Source of the DNA: a virus
Length of the DNA: 64,000 nt
Reading direction: 5' to 3' (one strand)
Virus record (IMG/VR): IMGVR_UViG_3300028585_000019
Span: 26,975-90,974 of that record
The notes below the pieces were generated by a model. That model made no database searches, was not told the origin of the DNA, and saw nothing but the letters and a program-made list of their open reading frames with translations. Shown piece by piece: positions 2,193-23,788 of the stretch; position 1 is the stretch's first letter, and each line of letters opens with the position of its first letter. The translations under genes were made by a program, and so were the position numbers.

Positions 2193-2222
2193 TTGACAAT
2201 ACATAGATAATCATGTTAATAT
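2193..2222 (+). promoter_or_regulatory. sigma70-type promoter upstream of terS
   Basis: TTGACA-18-TAATAT with TG extension. Confidence 0.55.
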
Positions 2223-2260: not shown

Positions 2261-2716
2261 ATGAGTGATGAAGATAATGATGTAAGTGAACCTCTCTACA
2301 CAGAGAGCGGTAGGAAGTTACCAAGTACAGCTTGGCCTAAAGGTCATTGTCCTAATAAAAAAGGACGGCCAAAAGCTGGCACAGAGAAGGCTAATGCAAA
2401 GCCTCGCAGTAAGATGCGTAACACTCTTAGTAAGCTTTATGAGCTTGAGCAAGTGGCTGCTGATGTAATTAAAGAGCATCTTGAGAATAAAGACAAAACT
2501 GTCGATCTGGATAAGAGTCGTCTTGATGTTGCTAAGTTTGTTATCAAGGCAATTGAGTCTTACAACAATACATGTCTTCGTGAAGAGATGGCTATCCTCG
2601 GTATTCGCGAGAAGAATGAAAAGAATGCTGATACTCTAGAAGAAAATCAATCTTTGGAAGCAGAAGCTCCTAAGAACTTTAGCATGGACTTGGTAGAAAC
2701 TTCCCTTAAACATTGA
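2261..2716 (+). CDS. probable terminase small subunit (DUF5681-like N-terminus)
   Basis: TAWPKGHCPNKKGRPK motif, helical body, position upstream of terL. Confidence 0.6.
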   Translation: MSDEDNDVSEPLYTESGRKLPSTAWPKGHCPNKKGRPKAGTEKANAKPRSKMRNTLSKLYELEQVAADVIKEHLENKDKTVDLDKSRLDVAKFVIKAIESYNNTCLREEMAILGIREKNEKNADTLEENQSLEAEAPKNFSMDLVETSLKH

Positions 2717-2724
2717 GGCAAGAT

Positions 2725-2937
2725 ATGCAATCAACAATTGAAAGACTTGAGTGGCAAATTGCACAATTAGAAAGCAGGGTAGCTCTTCTTGAGCTTGAGA
2801 TTACAGCTTTGAAGCAAACTGAGATTAATATTGATCCTGTGATGGTAACAACCGAATTTAAATCTGCAACAGAGAAAACCCTTAAAGAGGCATTGAAGCC
2901 CGGTGGTATGCTTTGGAATGCAATTAATAGTCGGTGA
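2725..2937 (+). CDS. small coiled-coil protein whose C-terminus resembles the tape measure protein C-terminus
   Basis: GAGG RBS before ATG at 2725; ends KSATEKTLKEALKPGGMLWNAINSR versus TMP KSECERAISNGLKPGGQIWRQMNGR. Confidence 0.7.
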   Translation: MQSTIERLEWQIAQLESRVALLELEITALKQTEINIDPVMVTTEFKSATEKTLKEALKPGGMLWNAINSR

Positions 2938-2943
2938 AGACTT

Positions 2944-3066
2944 ATGGATAATATCAAAATCGATATCATGTATTCAGACGGGTACTGGAAGTTTAAATGC
3001 TGCAAAACCTCTGTCTGGTCGGATTGGTTTGAAATAAAGAAACAAAAACCCAGAATTTTACATTGA
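2944..3066 (+). CDS. possible 40-aa hypothetical protein
   Basis: MDNIKIDIMYSDGYWKFKCCK...RILH*; fills the gap between neighbours; weak RBS. Confidence 0.35.
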   Translation: MDNIKIDIMYSDGYWKFKCCKTSVWSDWFEIKKQKPRILH

Positions 3067-3075
3067 GGAATAAAT

Positions 3076-3306
3076 ATGGAAAACCAACATAAAATGATTA
3101 AAGGTTATCGTGATCTTTCTCAATCAGAAATTGATGGGATGAACTCAATCAAGTCTCTTGAAGTTGATACTGGAGCCCTGTTTAAACAAATTTCTGAAAT
3201 TGAAGGCGTTGATCCCCGTTCTTTAGCACTAGCTAAAACTAAACTGCAAGAAGGTTTTATGTGGTTCGTCCGTGCTATTGCAAAACCTGCTGACCCATTT
3301 AATTAA
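3076..3306 (+). CDS. acb2: anti-CBASS sponge protein Acb2 (Acb2/Tad1 family)
   Basis: MENQHKMIKGYRDLSQSEIDGMNSIK...RSLALAKTKLQEGFMWFVRAIAKP matches the Acb2 signature as recalled (Y11 and K26 positions conserved). Confidence 0.85.
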   Translation: MENQHKMIKGYRDLSQSEIDGMNSIKSLEVDTGALFKQISEIEGVDPRSLALAKTKLQEGFMWFVRAIAKPADPFN

Positions 3307-3319
3307 TAAGGAATAAATA

Positions 3320-3847
3320 ATGAAATATGAAATCTTGCTGACCAGCAAAGATATGTTTGGTCAAGACGTAGTTGATAACCTGCTGGAACTTGGTAAGCTT
3401 GGTGCTGTAAAGAAAGAAGGCACTTTCGCTCATATGAAGTTTCCTTACACTGTGTATCTTGAAGTAGAAGCTGATGAGCCTCCTATGCCTTCTGCTCAAA
3501 TCCGTGTATTCGATCATAAGAAGAAAGAAGTGTTTGCTAAAGCTTTGGAAGAACAGCGTAAAGAAAAAGAGAAGGCTGAAAAGAAAGAGGCTAAGAAAGC
3601 AGAGAGTTCCACCCAAGCTGCTTCTAATTTCTCTGTAGAGCAAGAAGATAAAGATGATGAGGATGAAGGCGAAGCTGATAATTCTCTGGCTACCAATGAT
3701 CAAGGTGAACCCTGGACTAAAGAGCAGCTTGAGGATCTTGATTGGAACACCTTTAAAAAGGCACTTAAGCAGTCCCAAGGTATTACTGGGCGGAATCGTC
3801 CACAGATGTTGAAGCAGTATCTGGATAAAGTAGCTGAAAGTCAATAA
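3320..3847 (+). CDS. hypothetical protein with charged linker and small C-terminal helical (Rho-N/HeH-like) domain
   Basis: 175-aa ORF with strong RBS; C-terminal WTKEQLEDLDWNTFKK...GITGRNR. Confidence 0.7.
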   Translation: MKYEILLTSKDMFGQDVVDNLLELGKLGAVKKEGTFAHMKFPYTVYLEVEADEPPMPSAQIRVFDHKKKEVFAKALEEQRKEKEKAEKKEAKKAESSTQAASNFSVEQEDKDDEDEGEADNSLATNDQGEPWTKEQLEDLDWNTFKKALKQSQGITGRNRPQMLKQYLDKVAESQ

Positions 3848-3873: not shown

Positions 3874-3902
3874 TTGACAAGGCAGTTATTATTTAGTATA
3901 CT
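3874..3902 (+). promoter_or_regulatory. sigma70 promoter ahead of the endonuclease-terL-head operon
   Basis: TTGACA-17-TATACT. Confidence 0.75.
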
Positions 3903-4051: not shown

Positions 4052-5452
4052 ATGAATATTAGTATCGGAGATGTATTTTCACGTCTCACAGTTATTGAAA
4101 AAGCCGAGGACAAGACTTCTCCTGGCGGAAGGGTTCGTAAGTACTGGTTGTGTAAATGTTCGTGCGACAGAAATAAAACTCTCGAAGTCCGATCTGATAG
4201 CCTTACAGGTGAACGAGTCAGAAGTTGTGGGTGTCTCAGAGATGAGACGGCTCGTAAGATGCGGACTGGTCAGCCACCAAAAACTGTTAGACCTTTGCCT
4301 AGCCTTGCTGGTAATGTCTATGGTTTGCTTACTGTTGTAAAGCAAGCTGAACCTACTGAAACTCCTAAAGGGAGGAAGATGCCTAGGTGGGAATGCTCCT
4401 GTGAATGTGGAGAGACTGCTATTCTTTATCATGAACGACTTCGTAATAAAGAATACGTTTCTTGTGGGTGTGTCTCTAAAAAATCATATGATGCTGGATT
4501 CAAAAGTGCAACAGAGGGGTTTATTAGTAAAGCTAAAGAAGTTCATGGTGACAAATATGACTACTCTCTCACTTGCTTTGAGAGTTCTCGAAAACATGTA
4601 ACTATTTTGTGTAAGACTCATGGAGAGTTTAAACAAATTTCTGCTAATCATCTAACAGGAAACGGTTGTCCGCGTTGTGGAGTTGAAAGTAGGGCTGATA
4701 CCCTTGAAACTTTTATAGTAAAATCTGAGATTCTACATTCTAATGTGTATGACTACTCTAAAGTGGATTTCATCAGTCCTACAGAACCTGTTACTATTAC
4801 ATGCAAAGTACATGGAGATTTTGAGCAAAGACCTAAGACTCATTTAGGCGGTTTGGGTTGTCCTTTATGTAGCAGAGAGTCCGTTCTTAGTAATAGAGAA
4901 GAAGAATTTATTCGCCGTTCTATAGAGAAACATGGTGATAGGTATGATTACTCAGAAGTTGTCTATGAGGACGTACGTATCCATGTGAAAGTTGGATGTC
5001 CTTCTCACGGCACATTTCTACAAAGGCCTGATATTCACATGTTAGGTAGTAAATGTCCGAAATGTTCTTCTGAGGAGAGGGCTGCAAAACAACATTGGGA
5101 TTATCTGGAACGCTGCAAACTAGATCCTAAGCTTGCAAATTCGCCCGCTGTTCTGTACTTATTAAAACTTAATGACAACTTTGAATGTTTTCTTAAAGTT
5201 GGAATAAGTTCCTCTTTTAAAAGAAGGTTGTCTCACTACAAGGAAGAGGGGTTAGACTTTGAAGTTCTAGAAGTTGTTAATACTACAGCAATTCAGGCCG
5301 CATTGCTTGAAAGGGAAACTCTGAAGTATATTAGAGAATCTAGTATTAGATATATCCCTAACAAAATATTTGCAGGTTGGACAGAGTGTGCAACTCTAGA
5401 AAGTAAAGATCAACTTCTAGAAATTTTTAAGGAGCTTAGTAATAATGTCTGA
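4052..5452 (+). CDS. putative homing endonuclease with multiple Zn-ribbon (DUF723/CapR-like) repeats and a C-terminal GIY-YIG-like domain
   Basis: Two WxCxCxC(G)...SCGC modules; three HGxxYDYS...CxxHGxF...GCPxC repeats; LKVGIS...GWTE C-terminus. Confidence 0.75.
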   Translation: MNISIGDVFSRLTVIEKAEDKTSPGGRVRKYWLCKCSCDRNKTLEVRSDSLTGERVRSCGCLRDETARKMRTGQPPKTVRPLPSLAGNVYGLLTVVKQAEPTETPKGRKMPRWECSCECGETAILYHERLRNKEYVSCGCVSKKSYDAGFKSATEGFISKAKEVHGDKYDYSLTCFESSRKHVTILCKTHGEFKQISANHLTGNGCPRCGVESRADTLETFIVKSEILHSNVYDYSKVDFISPTEPVTITCKVHGDFEQRPKTHLGGLGCPLCSRESVLSNREEEFIRRSIEKHGDRYDYSEVVYEDVRIHVKVGCPSHGTFLQRPDIHMLGSKCPKCSSEERAAKQHWDYLERCKLDPKLANSPAVLYLLKLNDNFECFLKVGISSSFKRRLSHYKEEGLDFEVLEVVNTTAIQAALLERETLKYIRESSIRYIPNKIFAGWTECATLESKDQLLEIFKELSNNV

Positions 5453-18500: not shown

Positions 18501-18699
18501 TGGATCTACTGTTGTTGCTCCTGTAAGTGTCACTATTCAAACAGATGGTGGTATGGGGGGACAAGGCAACTCATCTTCTACCAACCAAGAAGGCCAAGGT
18601 AAGGCTGTACAGCAAGCTATTAAGTCTGAATGTGAACGTGCTATCTCCAACGGTCTTAAGCCTGGAGGTCAAATCTGGCGTCAAATGAATGGGCGATAG
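15589..18699 (+). CDS. tail tape measure protein (lambda-type)
   Basis: 1036 aa, helical; LPAQFTDIAVSLQGGQ and MGEAGPEAILPL motifs. Confidence 0.95.
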   Translation: MPTIAELQIKVNTTDLDRAKKSLDDLAKSTANLDKASEASSRTRTKASEQVSDILEDEAAIIERVAAAEKQRAQSAAASSGTLASSYKQSSQAVNQFESAVDNAAASQGKLQASTKTRISDVASERQAYRQLIASIDPTTAALQKLEDQQRELNALQARGKAGTGIGIDPAEFTRLNTMIEASRKRIGDLGATTGKTAKEINFALRGLPAQFTDIAVSLQGGQAPLTVFLQQGGQIKDMFGGVGPALRAMAGYAFSLINPFTLAAAALGALAVGFVVGSREASAYNKALITTGNIAGVTADSLSESARAISDMGGTQGAAAKALIEVASAGRFTATQIDSIAEAAVRMNSVTGKAVSDTVGEFEALAKEPSKAILDLNSKYHFLTSSVFEQIQALENQGRTQDAATLAIETYSNTLQSRTTGIKENLSIIETGWKAISGAAKLALDAIVDVGREQTFADQLAEAQEAVRVAEGARNATYRGRQGLLPEREREVEIARQYVEELKDQQEGERLVAEQQAFKQRTQDRAVASGQRLNSQYQASLSTTEKLRKELTDLSKEYDNIKAAGSVSAETEKQYQDTVAATTKRLKEAEEAEKKRGAARTKTPVVREDSGARLLATMKQQEESLIAQRDATDRITSEEQKLIKLREQFRQIEQKQLTEKLTKEQTSLLANKEALLAQQQKNAEVQKEIVAQKELEKLATVRAALDQQIAVDRQKYQDALIGATSSDKEAERLRERNRLEQDYQRQLQEFGKQNREGSLSDGGYQEATAQLAVTLAERQRLMEDYYAKQDQMQGDWVNGAKKAYENWAEAGRNVAGMTQSLFTSAFSSMEDALTGFVTTGKLSFKDLTVSILKDLAAMATKIAANQILTSIIGSFAGGFGGAASAGASAATSATTNTGSAFAGYAAKGKAFSGGVEYFANGGAFTNSIVNRPTAFGTGTGIGVMGEAGPEAILPLTRTSDGQLGVKGMGGGSTVVAPVSVTIQTDGGMGGQGNSSSTNQEGQGKAVQQAIKSECERAISNGLKPGGQIWRQMNGR

Positions 18700-19090: not shown

Positions 19091-20488
19091 ATGGCAATAC
19101 AAGATATTGATTTAGGAACAATTCCTCTAGACGGGACAGATGGTGATACAGCTAGGGAAGCGTTCGTTAAGGTGAATGAGAACTTTGATGAGATTGATAC
19201 TCGTGTAACTGCGCTTGAGAATGAGCCAGATCCGGGTACTGTTAAAAGTGTAAATGGTGTTTTACCTAATAATCAAGGTAACGTAACGCTTACCCCAGCT
19301 AATGTAGGGTCAGCCACAGCAGCTCAAGGGTTACTGGCTTCTAGCGCCGTTCAACCAAGTTCATTAGGTACCGCTGCATATCTTGATGCAAATGCTTTTG
19401 CCACAAACGAGCAAGGACAGGCAGCAACTACAGCGTTAGCTCTTGCGCAAAGCGCAGTTCAACCAGAAGATTTGGGATCGGCTGCATATCTAAGTAGCAG
19501 CAAGTTTGCATCAGCAGCTCAAGGCTTACTTGCTGATAGTGCTGTGCAGCCTGAAGACATACCTTCTATTCTCTCTCCATATGAAAGACTTCTTACTGCT
19601 GGGGATAACATTGCCATAGATAGGACAGATCCCTCCACCCCTATTATAAATTCTATTCCTATTAGAATTTATGAACAACAACCAGAAAATCCACCACTTT
19701 ATACCTTTTTCATGGTAGTCCCGCCACCAGATATTGATAAACCTGTTGTAAGCTCTTTTGTTATAGTTGGTAATACTCCACCACCGCTAGCAATCTCATC
19801 TTTCGATGCTACTGATAATGTTGGAGTAACTGGTTGGTGGCTTGGTGAAACAGCACAAACCCCAGCGCTTAGCGACCCTAAATGGTCAGTCACAAAACCT
19901 CCTATCTACAATACAGAGTCTGTAGGGAGCGTAGTTGTTTATGCCAGGGCTAGAGATGCTGCTGGAAACATCAGCGATGCAGCCAGTCAAACAGTAAATG
20001 TTTTGGCCAACCCTTATGTTGATGTTAGTTGGCCTTATGACTCGGCAAGGGATACTGGTTTATTCAGTGTTGCAGCGGGTAGTTTCACTACCAGGTCTAG
20101 CATTCCGTTTGTGAATACTATAACAAGAACAATAAAAAGTGTCAGCGTTCCTATGAGAAAACAAGTTGAGGCTTCTTATCCGGGTGTTGGTACAGTGCAA
20201 CTGCAAATACGCTCAGGTAGTAACACAGGCACTGTTTTGGCAACAGCAACAACAGCACAATTCACGTCTGCGACGGTTAGTGCAAAATTGTTTACTCTTC
20301 CAGCTAACTTAACTTTGCAAGCAGGTGTTACATATTTCTTCGTATTTAGTTTGATAAATTTATCAGGCGGAGATTCAGTTTATCGACTACTTACTGACCC
20401 AACTAAAGGTACAATTTGGTCGAACTATAATGAAACTACATGGACTAGCTACGCAGGTCAGAGTCCTTTGAGATTGGAACTAGCATGA
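19091..20488 (+). CDS. side tail fibre/adhesin-like protein
   Basis: N-terminal DGTDGDTAREAFVKVNENF attachment motif, VKSVNG, three A..QG..A.SAVQP repeats, Ig-like RDAAGN segment, beta-sandwich C-terminus. Confidence 0.7.
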   Translation: MAIQDIDLGTIPLDGTDGDTAREAFVKVNENFDEIDTRVTALENEPDPGTVKSVNGVLPNNQGNVTLTPANVGSATAAQGLLASSAVQPSSLGTAAYLDANAFATNEQGQAATTALALAQSAVQPEDLGSAAYLSSSKFASAAQGLLADSAVQPEDIPSILSPYERLLTAGDNIAIDRTDPSTPIINSIPIRIYEQQPENPPLYTFFMVVPPPDIDKPVVSSFVIVGNTPPPLAISSFDATDNVGVTGWWLGETAQTPALSDPKWSVTKPPIYNTESVGSVVVYARARDAAGNISDAASQTVNVLANPYVDVSWPYDSARDTGLFSVAAGSFTTRSSIPFVNTITRTIKSVSVPMRKQVEASYPGVGTVQLQIRSGSNTGTVLATATTAQFTSATVSAKLFTLPANLTLQAGVTYFFVFSLINLSGGDSVYRLLTDPTKGTIWSNYNETTWTSYAGQSPLRLELA

Positions 20489-21591
20489 TTAATATTCCAT
20501 ATGATGATGAGAGTATATACTATGCAGGTAGGTGGGATTTATCAAATTCCTCAGCAAGAAGTTACTGGCAGGGCAGCCAAATACGTTTCAGAGTAGAAGG
20601 AACAGGTCAGATAATTCTAGACCTATCCGTAACTGGAAGTAACTTTGTCGTTGTAAATATAGATTCTGGCCCAGCCGTTTTGTATACATTAAGTACAACT
20701 AGTAATCAAAGTTTAGTTATACCTCTGCCAAATGCATCCATGCACACAATTGTTCTTAAACTGTTCTCTGATCCGGTTACTCAGTTTTCTGGCACCAGCA
20801 CATGTGCCCTCAGGTCTATACAGTTGGATAATGAGGGAGCACTATCTCCATGGGGCAATCGGGGGTTGGTTGTGGTACAAGCTGTTGGAGATAGCTGGAT
20901 GGCTGCACAGAATGATTGGCCCTATTTACTGAATAACTCAGTATACAATATCCAGCCGATTGCATTTGGCGGCGCAAAAACATCAGACCTTAACTCCCAG
21001 TATAATAATTTCTCATCTTCCACGGTAGCAGTAGCTGATAAGCCAGCAAACCTCGTATTGGTCAGTACCGGGGTAAATGACACTTATGCTAACGTAAGTG
21101 TCAGTGATTATCAAACTGCAATGAGTGCTCTTGTTGATAAGATAAGAATTAGGCAGCCAAACGCCAGGATTGGTATTCTAGGGGCACCCCGGAATATTGC
21201 AGCCAACAGACTATACAATCAATACGATTCTGCAAATCAGGCGGTAGCTAATTCAAAGACTGGCGTGACCTTTACACCAACACCTAATAGTGTAGCTGAC
21301 AACCTATCATGGGATACTGATCAGGCCCACCTCACTTTCACAGGTCGCCAACAATACGCTGCTTGGGTAAAAACCCAAATTGATCCTATTATCGACTTTA
21401 GAAGTATCTCAGTAACAACAAGTCAAGGTTCAACACCCGTGCTGCTAGGCTTAGGCTCCCAGGAGGGTGACCTCAGTGTCAGGCTTAATGGGGGATTATA
21501 CAGAACAAAGCTGGAACCTGTATACACCCCGTACCCAGAACAAAAGGTTTTGGTTAAGTTATTAAATGGAATTTTCCAAATATCCGAATAG
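20485..21591 (+). CDS. SGNH/GDSL esterase with N-terminal beta domain (CE2-like)
   Basis: YYAGRW N-terminus; catalytic blocks VGDSW, GG, GVND and DQAH. Confidence 0.82.
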   Translation: MINIPYDDESIYYAGRWDLSNSSARSYWQGSQIRFRVEGTGQIILDLSVTGSNFVVVNIDSGPAVLYTLSTTSNQSLVIPLPNASMHTIVLKLFSDPVTQFSGTSTCALRSIQLDNEGALSPWGNRGLVVVQAVGDSWMAAQNDWPYLLNNSVYNIQPIAFGGAKTSDLNSQYNNFSSSTVAVADKPANLVLVSTGVNDTYANVSVSDYQTAMSALVDKIRIRQPNARIGILGAPRNIAANRLYNQYDSANQAVANSKTGVTFTPTPNSVADNLSWDTDQAHLTFTGRQQYAAWVKTQIDPIIDFRSISVTTSQGSTPVLLGLGSQEGDLSVRLNGGLYRTKLEPVYTPYPEQKVLVKLLNGIFQISE

Positions 21592-23215: not shown

Positions 23216-23788
23216 GTGATTAATAATACAATGCGTACTGTTAGGCTCTACAGTAAGATGGGTGCAAAGTTCGGCAGGGTACACAAGCTTGCTGTGAACA
23301 GTCCAGCAGAAGCAATTAAAGCTTTGTGTGTAACTATCCCTGGCTTTGAAAAGTACCTGATGGAGTCTAAGAAAAATAATCTTGAGTTTGCTGTATTCAA
23401 CGGCAAAGAAAATATCTCTGAAGATCTTCTTAAGATGGGCGGTACTAGAGATATCCGCATTGCTCCTATTGTCTCTGGTAGTAAACGCAATGGTCTGTTT
23501 CAGACAATCCTTGGGGCTGTATTAGTTGTCGTTGGTGTCGTATTTCCTCCAGCAGCATTCTTGGTAGCTCCCGGTCTTGCTTTGTTGGCTGGTGGTATTA
23601 TTCAAATGCTTAGCCCACAGGCGAAAGGGTTGAAGAGTAGGGAAGACCCTGACAACCGCCCATCGGCATCGTTCGGCGGTGCTGTGAATACGGTCGCACA
23701 AGGGAATCCCATAGCTATTTTAGGAGGAGCCCGTCAGATCGGCGGTGCGATCATCTCAGCATCTATTGTAGCAGAAGAATATGCATAA
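23216..23788 (+). CDS. tail assembly protein I-like
   Basis: AEAIKAL, IRIAPIVSGSK and FGGAVNTVAQG motifs. Confidence 0.9.
   Translation: MINNTMRTVRLYSKMGAKFGRVHKLAVNSPAEAIKALCVTIPGFEKYLMESKKNNLEFAVFNGKENISEDLLKMGGTRDIRIAPIVSGSKRNGLFQTILGAVLVVVGVVFPPAAFLVAPGLALLAGGIIQMLSPQAKGLKSREDPDNRPSASFGGAVNTVAQGNPIAILGGARQIGGAIISASIVAEEYA

Follow-up and report, generated by a model that had tools for sequence, protein, structure and literature searches.

Ahead of the terminase gene terL, the phage genome analysed here encodes a protein of 70 residues in which a private N-terminal coiled coil is followed by a free-standing copy of the last ~30 residues of the phage's own tape measure protein (TMP). Coordinates refer to the window, that is, the whole stretch of 64,000 nucleotides under analysis, and are collected in the table. 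The protein is a minimal coiled-coil variant of a recurrent kind of phage accessory protein, the function of this kind being uncharacterised, and its gene probably acts in tail-assembly conflicts. The reading favored here, to which a probability of roughly 35% is assigned, is that the 70-aa protein is a small soluble accessory protein rather than a core part of the tail, and that, as a decoy, it keeps Tab-like blockers of tail assembly away from the TMP end. It is preferred because the position of the gene resembles that of the anti-Tab gene and because the protein copies the targeted end of the phage's own TMP.

A BLASTP comparison of the 70-aa protein with the 1036-aa TMP returned a single ungapped match, between residues 41-70 of the former and 1007-1036 of the latter (12/30 identical, E 2e-6), and this alignment stops at both C-termini, which are those defined by the two stop codons. 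The gapless alignment of the last 25 residues, flush at the stop and with 11 identities, that had been described in an earlier note on this DNA was thereby reproduced, and the positions of the ORF and of the TMP were found as quoted there (18622-18699 for the TMP end). When the last 30 residues were scored, flush at their ends, against all 313 ORFs of at least 60 aa in the window, the TMP obtained a score of 69, about 9 standard deviations above a background with a mean of -26.5, a standard deviation of 10.5 and a maximum of 8. BLASTP against the J, I, K, L and M proteins of the window gave nothing, the TMP end being the sole match. The two termini read KPGG-MLW-NAINSR in the 70-aa protein and KPGG-QIW-RQMNGR in the window TMP, and the residues common to both proteins are located at the hydrophobic positions of the helix and in the tail. 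At the DNA level, the same codon is used for just 5 of the 11 identical residues, one of these being Trp with its single codon, and the last 78 nt of the two genes are identical at 39 positions (50%). These values argue against a recent DNA duplication and in favor of a likeness kept at the protein level, as the earlier note had deduced from the differing codons.

Table. Position of the 70-aa gene, its parts, its neighbors, the relevant tail genes and the related loci. Positions without a prefix are those of the window; the others are preceded by the record in which they are found.
Feature	Position	Strand	Evidence or remark
Sigma-70-like promoter (TTGACA, 18 nt, TAATAT, with TG)	2193..2222	+	consensus scan, 10/12 matches; consensus match only
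Conserved 151-aa upstream gene	2261..2716	+	Pfam PF18932 (DUF5681), E 5.7e-4, below cut-off
70-aa gene, free-standing copy of the TMP tip end	2725..2937	+	translated ORF, TMP match
Residues 2-31, private four-heptad coiled coil, a = I/V, d = L	2728..2817	+	AlphaFold2, homologue comparison
Residues 32-42, variable linker of low predicted order	2818..2850	+	pLDDT about 54
Residues 43-70, TMP-end copy: helix 43-57, KPGG turn, tail MLWNAINSR	2851..2934	+	flush with TMP 1007-1036
Lineage-specific insertion, 381 nt	2938..3318	+	absent from L003 and L004
40-aa Cys/Trp-rich ORF	2944-3066	+	within the 381-nt insertion
Acb2	3076-3306	+	Pfam PF24729, E 5.9e-19; 139 nt downstream of the 70-aa gene
Conserved 175-aa acidic downstream gene, closes the variable slot	3320..3847	+	homologues after the slot in relatives
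Lambda-type TMP, 1036 aa	15589..18699	+	Pfam TMP_2 6.5e-74, Tape_meas_lam_C 2.7e-26, TMP_4 6e-11
TMP residues 1007-1036, tip-docking helix and PGGQIW tail	18607..18696	+	BLASTP to the 70-aa protein
gpI homologue, tail assembly protein I	23216..23788	+	Pfam Lambda_tail_I 2.4e-5; thousands of homologues
Slot occupant in phiPMW (gp124)	L026:4936-5169		
Slot occupant in SYP (gp156)	L027:4907-5089		
Free-standing protein phi80 gp66	L019:4353-5081		
Free-standing protein mEp043 gp71	L012:1150-1617		
Free-standing protein SaltyDalty CDS20	L018:2030-2581		

The nature of the copied segment can be approached through the TMPs of other phages. A tblastn search with the last 150 residues of the window TMP retrieved 555 phage records, with many alignments reaching the final residue, and the common TMP end consists of a helix followed by [KRQ]PGG, x-[IL]-W/Y and a short, mostly basic tail at the stop codon. 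The [KRQ]PGG-x-[IL]-aromatic end is present in Medea1, HK022, HK446, phiKO2, N15 and Kp4865-4; the TMPs of lambda and cdtI end in a degenerate RDGG-LF/RL form. Judged by its sequence, the 70-aa protein has copied the C-terminal helix and [KRQ]PGG-x-[IL]-W tail that are conserved in TMPs of the lambda/HK97 type, and both features of this tip-docking module, the very C-terminal position and the succession of helix, [KRQ]PGG-x-[IL]-aromatic and short tail, are found in the copy. In lambda, residues 818-849 of gpH correspond to this helix and tail and form a three-helix coiled coil in the lumen of the tip (PMC10721106), where they are held by the tripod formed by residues 135-223 of gpI (PMC10721106, PMC12617516), a structural basis for the statement of the earlier note that the C-terminus of lambda-type TMPs docks in the tail tip. 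Cleavage of gpH yields gpH* and a C-terminal fragment, gpHC, of which three of six copies remain on gpI (PMC12617516). The solved 612-aa TMP of the F-pyocin PyoF5 (PDB 25vf, chain 5) ends with RPGGLVWRMVNG and matches the end of the window TMP with an E value of 7e-12; in the F-pyocin, the TMP trimer touches the gpI-like TAP trimer (PMC13455828). A full lambda-type tip set (M, L, K, I and J) is encoded in the window and, by analogy with the lambda and F-pyocin structures (PMC10721106, PMC13455828), the C-terminal part of its gpI homologue is presumed to be the socket for the TMP end. The 70-aa protein has the same amphipathic helix, the same [KRQ]-P-G-G-x-[IL]-aromatic sequence and the same short, mostly basic tail as the lambda/HK97-type TMP end, but it is the product of a separate gene, whereas the TMP end belongs to a protein of roughly 1000 aa. 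Its helix is also shorter (about 15 residues versus about 25), and upstream of the motif it has a private coil with a dimer-type a/d pattern and no glycine-rich region. As a side observation on the same tail module, two additional genes are located between M and L (19091-21591), encoding a 465-aa protein of no known family and an esterase of the GDSL type (368 aa, with CE2 as its N-terminal domain), which together are likely a glycan-deacetylating tail accessory.

The 70-aa gene is preceded by a GAGG Shine-Dalgarno sequence (2715-2718), 6 nt 5' of its ATG. AlphaFold2 predicts for its product three helices (2-31, 43-57 and 62-68), the PGG turn and a floppy linker, with a mean pLDDT of 78 that rises to 88-96 in the first helix. 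The N-terminal heptad coiled coil described in the earlier note is upheld by this prediction and by the retention of its a/d core (a = I5, I12, V19, I26; d = L8, L15, L22, L29) in a 42%-identical homologue in which the surface residues have changed. The profile of the 70-aa protein matches GCN4-type coils in the PDB. Ile or Val at a combined with Leu at d, as in GCN4 variants, is the pattern of dimeric coils, and the trimer presupposed in the earlier note is thus an assumption. The linker is the most variable stretch of the family alignment, with a 1-aa indel in one lineage. Comparisons with Pfam, PHROGs and NCBIfam yielded coiled-coil noise or matches limited to the motif and no functional annotation, and the ESM Atlas returned generic helical look-alikes only. 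According to Pfam, the Acb2_Tad1 hairpin domain is absent from the 70-aa protein, Acb2 being the product of a neighboring gene.

The family of this protein is tiny. A word-index search gave four relatives, an exhaustive HMMER search of 1.84 billion representatives retrieved only two clusters, P0004 and P0129 (69 aa), and the total amounts to seven distinct sequences, all of them metagenomic. The sequence TLKEALKPGGML is unchanged throughout the close family. The distant homologue P0129, with an overall identity of 42%, ends with RPGGMLWSVINSR and retains PGGMLW..INSR, so that even at this distance nothing in the family is better conserved than the C-terminal motif; conservation of the motif among homologues had been put forward in the earlier note as a check of its proposal. 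The dN/dS ratios of the gene against two metagenome homologues are 0.20 and 0.35, and the gene is under purifying selection. No longer protein sharing residues 31-70 was retrieved by a word-index search, no locus was found by scanning viral and genome contigs with the family alignment and P0129, the scan of metagenome contigs gave two short contigs only, and the region had no megablast match in the phage collection. In one of the metagenome contigs (L004:1552-1554), the motif has an amber stop in place of its Trp codon (TAG for TGG), and the NAINNR codons behind it are still in frame. P0134, a 71-aa protein from another contig, is identical to this version except for an intact Trp; the amber codon arose either by recent mutation or by an error in sequencing.

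The genomic context is that of a variable slot. The 70-aa gene starts 9 nt after a conserved 151-aa gene and about 2.5 kb ahead of terL. The unit containing the 70-aa gene likely starts at a promoter recognised by its consensus (2193-2222), with a terminator (2135-2153) just 5' of it. No terminator-like site was detected between this promoter and the next strong one (3874-3902), and the run behind it comprises the 151-aa gene, the 70-aa gene, the 40-aa ORF, the Acb2 gene and the 175-aa gene; an endonuclease-like gene and then terL are found 3' of the second promoter. The 151-aa protein has homologues in the Pseudomonas phages phiPMW (gp123) and vB_PpS_SYP, hereafter SYP (gp157), likewise encoded upstream of terL. 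Weakly DUF5681-like, it is a candidate small terminase, and comparisons with NCBIfam and PDB sequences gave no small-terminase identification. Homologues of the 175-aa gene are found behind the slot in the metagenome contigs L003 and L004, in phiPMW (gp125) and in SYP (gp155). In L003 and L004, the 70-aa gene is located between the same two conserved genes, the second of them following after 19 nt, without the 40-aa ORF and Acb2. The earlier note had taken the proximity of Acb2 as an argument for a counter-defence role; Acb2 itself was confirmed, but its association with the 70-aa gene is due to an insertion of this genome that is missing from both contigs, which makes the argument a weak one. 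The slot clearly accepts counter-defence cargo, even if this particular neighborhood is not conserved.

In phiPMW and SYP, both flanking genes are kept ahead of terL and the slot holds an unrelated gene (77 or 60 aa). Homologues of L, K and I are retained in these phages, and phiPMW has TRGGGSLQ / TRPGGTIQ as a variant of the TMP end. Since the flanks and the tip are kept there with another gene in the slot, the 70-aa gene is an accessory slot occupant, dispensable for a lambda-type tip. The idea that relatives without the gene are also devoid of a lambda-type tip, raised by the lack of matches to PF06805 and to the TMP end, was dropped, this correlation being ruled out by the homologues and the variant end read directly in phiPMW. 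The slot proteins phiPMW gp124 and SYP gp156 share a C-terminal KPFV-IDGVVY-N motif; neither slot gene has a paralogue elsewhere in its own genome, and gp124 copies no other part of the phiPMW genome.

The closest functional precedent is found in prophage JBD26, whose Tab protein blocks tail assembly with a specificity mapped beyond residue 856 of the TMP, in its C-terminal part, and from which no spontaneous escape mutants were obtained (PMC10884400). The view of the earlier note that some defences target tail assembly is well founded in this respect, and blocking of this kind is a proven strategy, exemplified by Tab and Tai (PMC10884400, PMC11364771). The late operon carries the anti-Tab gene between terS, which it directly follows, and terL (PMC10884400). 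Like the 70-aa protein, anti-Tab (JBD26 gp30) is small (83 aa) and encoded on the forward strand ahead of terL; its gene directly follows the one taken for the small terminase, the corresponding gene of the window being a candidate for this function, and the Tab/anti-Tab system turns on the TMP C-terminal part (PMC10884400), the segment whose end the 70-aa protein copies. The parallel has its limits: anti-Tab binds Tab, the 70-aa gene has no tab partner on the opposite strand, and the tail of JBD26 is Mu-like and bears a baseplate in place of the lambda-type tip of the window phage. No BLASTP match was found between the 70-aa protein and gp30 at E <=10, nor any likeness to Tab. Anti-Tab was also considered as a possible TMP mimic, and showed no resemblance to the JBD26 TMP. 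A second tail-assembly defence and counter-defence pair, TaiEcA/AtiEcA (phi80 orf63/orf64), is encoded upstream of the packaging module, beside the motif-bearing orf66; escape from Tai maps to protein J, not to the TMP (PMC11364771). Neither TaiEcA nor AtiEcA has any sequence likeness to the 70-aa protein.

On this background, the decoy could operate as follows. The parallel N-terminal coiled coil (2-31) would oligomerise the protein, and the floppy linker would display the copy of the phage's own TMP extremity, made of helix 43-57, the KPGG turn and the aromatic tail. Many free copies of the TMP end would in this manner be offered to a host- or prophage-encoded factor that binds it to stop tail assembly; with the blocker occupied, the real TMP would be free to dock. 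The oligomeric state, binding partner, expression timing and phenotype entering this scheme are those that we infer for the protein. Several observations favor it: the copy is significant and flush at the stop, its motif is the part that selection has best preserved, the gene is dispensable for the tip, and its slot has also taken up a counter-defence gene in this genome. In addition, the targeting of the TMP C-terminal part is a published precedent (PMC10884400), and the 96%-complete genome yielded no tyrosine integrase, which suggests a probably virulent phage that would gain by evading tail-assembly blocks. Against the decoy stand the absence of any likeness to anti-Tab or Tab, anti-Tab itself being no TMP mimic, and the status of the upstream gene, a small terminase as a candidate only. 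No credible opposite-strand defence gene is present around the 70-aa gene in the window, the minus-strand ORFs nearby overlapping plus-strand genes and having neither homologues nor signals. The positions held in common with the TMP are as compatible with docking as with epitope mimicry, and a protein that reproduces the docking end faithfully could become a competitor of the phage's own TMP at the tip. Finally, Avs sensors are triggered by TMPs according to a recent review, and a mimic could trigger them as well (PMC13728456).

Free-standing copies of the motif are not limited to this phage. Weak tblastn matches of the 70-aa protein led to several proteins other than TMPs with the motif at their end: mEp043 gp71, a 297-aa protein of the Aeromonas phage AsXd-1, Torfinnsbu CDS81, SaltyDalty CDS20, phi80 gp66 and N15 gp59. 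They belong to PHROGs 16910, 17079, 13555 and 29765, which have no assigned function. In the lambdoid phages, the genes for these proteins belong to the late region and stand between lysis and cos/packaging genes; the neighborhood of Torfinnsbu CDS81 is one of tRNAs and replication genes. N15 gp59 has a mosaic structure in which residues 17-136 match the phage's own J (733-854, E 2e-7) and residues 178-205 its own TMP end, and the AsXd-1 protein likewise matches its own J (E 2e-7). Like the 70-aa protein, the members of this group are non-TMP accessory proteins ending in the TMP motif. Unlike it, they comprise 155-297 aa, with J-derived pieces or a mutually shared N-terminal domain; neither the J modules nor the gp66-type N-terminal domain occurs in the 70-aa protein. 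No full-length match was obtained with PHROG 17079, 16910, 13555 or 29765, the matches found being limited to the motif (E 0.02-0.1; 0.019 for phrog_13555 and 0.095 for phrog_16910).

The coupling of these copies to the cognate TMP was evaluated by scoring seven free-standing ends against 13 TMP ends. The window protein ranks its own TMP end first (1/13, score 64, next 53), which is in keeping with the decoy. Elsewhere the own TMP end ranks 3/13 for N15 gp59, 4/13 for mEp043 gp71, 5/13 for Torfinnsbu CDS81, 10/13 for phi80 gp66 and 13/13 for the AsXd-1 protein, and the last two values in particular speak against the decoy. In phi80, mEp043 and AsXd-1, the own TMP end has diverged (SAGGVLY, MPGSPLW) and the free-standing protein keeps the canonical PGG-x-I-W; given this divergence, co-variation with the cognate TMP is not a general rule. 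This check, proposed in the earlier note, therefore has a positive outcome for the window protein and a negative one for the other phages with free-standing copies.

A canonical free copy next to a diverged TMP of the same phage, as in phi80, mEp043 and AsXd-1, has the look of a poison with a resistant self. It could indeed be imagined that the oligomeric TMP-end copy docks in the gpI socket of rival tips and caps them, so that no tape measure attaches and no tail is made, the targets being co-resident lambdoid prophages, co-infecting phages or F-type tailocins. The contact of the copied segment with the gpI/TAP trimer in lambda and in the F-pyocin (PMC10721106, PMC12617516, PMC13455828), together with the PDB 25vf match, would provide the docking site, and proteins that block tail assembly exist (Tab, Tai). 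For the window protein such a use is nevertheless unlikely: since the copy is most similar to the TMP end of the same phage, the tails of that phage would be at risk of being poisoned, and a probably virulent phage gains little by blocking rival tails in a cell that will soon be lysed.

The same closeness to the cognate TMP, along with the location of the gene within the morphogenesis block ahead of terL, would also suit a helper in the assembly of the phage's own tip. As a placeholder or chaperone, the protein could keep the gpI socket, or surplus tip complexes, occupied until the TMP-chaperone complex arrives, or it could be a minor component of the tip lumen; lambda itself makes a free TMP end, gpHC, part of which stays on gpI (PMC12617516). 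This assignment too seems improbable. The gene is missing from relatives with the same flanks and a lambda-type tip, the family is tiny, the TMP itself fills the socket in solved tails, and the analogous orf66 of phi80 is deletable, loss of titre being reported for the deletion of orf64 only (He et al., PMC11364771). Less probable still is a portable C-terminal tag with a use unrelated to the tip (protease, chaperone or host factor), or an unrelated function with the likeness as a relic, which would suit the occurrence of the same end on very different N-terminal modules across phages and the lack of functional annotation in Pfam, PHROGs and NCBIfam, but not the fact that the motif is the most conserved part of the 70-aa protein, nor that the tip lumen is its only known structural context.

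A broader proposal, held at somewhat less than even odds, is that the last ~30 residues of lambda-type TMPs are a portable docking module, repeatedly grafted onto other scaffolds (a bare coil here, J pieces or another domain in N15 gp59 and phi80 gp66) to protect or sabotage tip assembly, the 70-aa protein being the minimal form of an unrecognised and widespread class acting at the TMP-gpI interface. With phi80 orf66 and N15 gene 59 as catalogued precedents devoid of characterisation, the case of the window is not unique. Tail-assembly-blocking defences such as Tab and Tai were described only in 2024 and the phage answers to them are largely uncharted; a free-standing copy of the TMP docking segment is an obvious candidate tool, shield or weapon, in such conflicts. 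With its 70 residues, the protein is small enough for direct testing and is a potential handle on the recognition of the TMP end during tip assembly.

Several minor observations concern the other carriers of the motif. phi80 gp66, mEp043 gp71 and SaltyDalty CDS20 have in common an N-terminal domain of ~80 aa followed by differing middle modules, which points to a family evolving by module swapping. phi80 and mEp043 have identical TMP ends and different free-standing proteins (242 aa versus 155 aa). In SaltyDalty, the annotated TMP (L023:20103-22901) reaches the end of the record without a lambda-type C-terminus, and no M, L, K or I is annotated after it; a rearrangement of this record or a defect of the tail module may be the reason. 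In AsXd-1, a spanin-like coiled-coil protein with a single transmembrane segment, encoded after the endolysin (L015:5131-5406, minus strand), ends with FTRPGGR, a resemblance to the PGG turn of the TMP end that may be due to chance.

The surroundings of the slot in the window have their own particularities. Before terL and behind the near-consensus promoter at 3874-3902, a gene (4052-5452) encodes a 466-aa protein with repeated Cys-pair/DUF723-like units and looks like a homing-endonuclease-type insertion; at the corresponding place, L003 starts a shorter, different version. On the other side, a tRNA-Arg gene (TCT, 1697-1773) directly follows a T5orf172/GIY-YIG-like gene (1132-1692) and precedes the terminator at 2135-2153.
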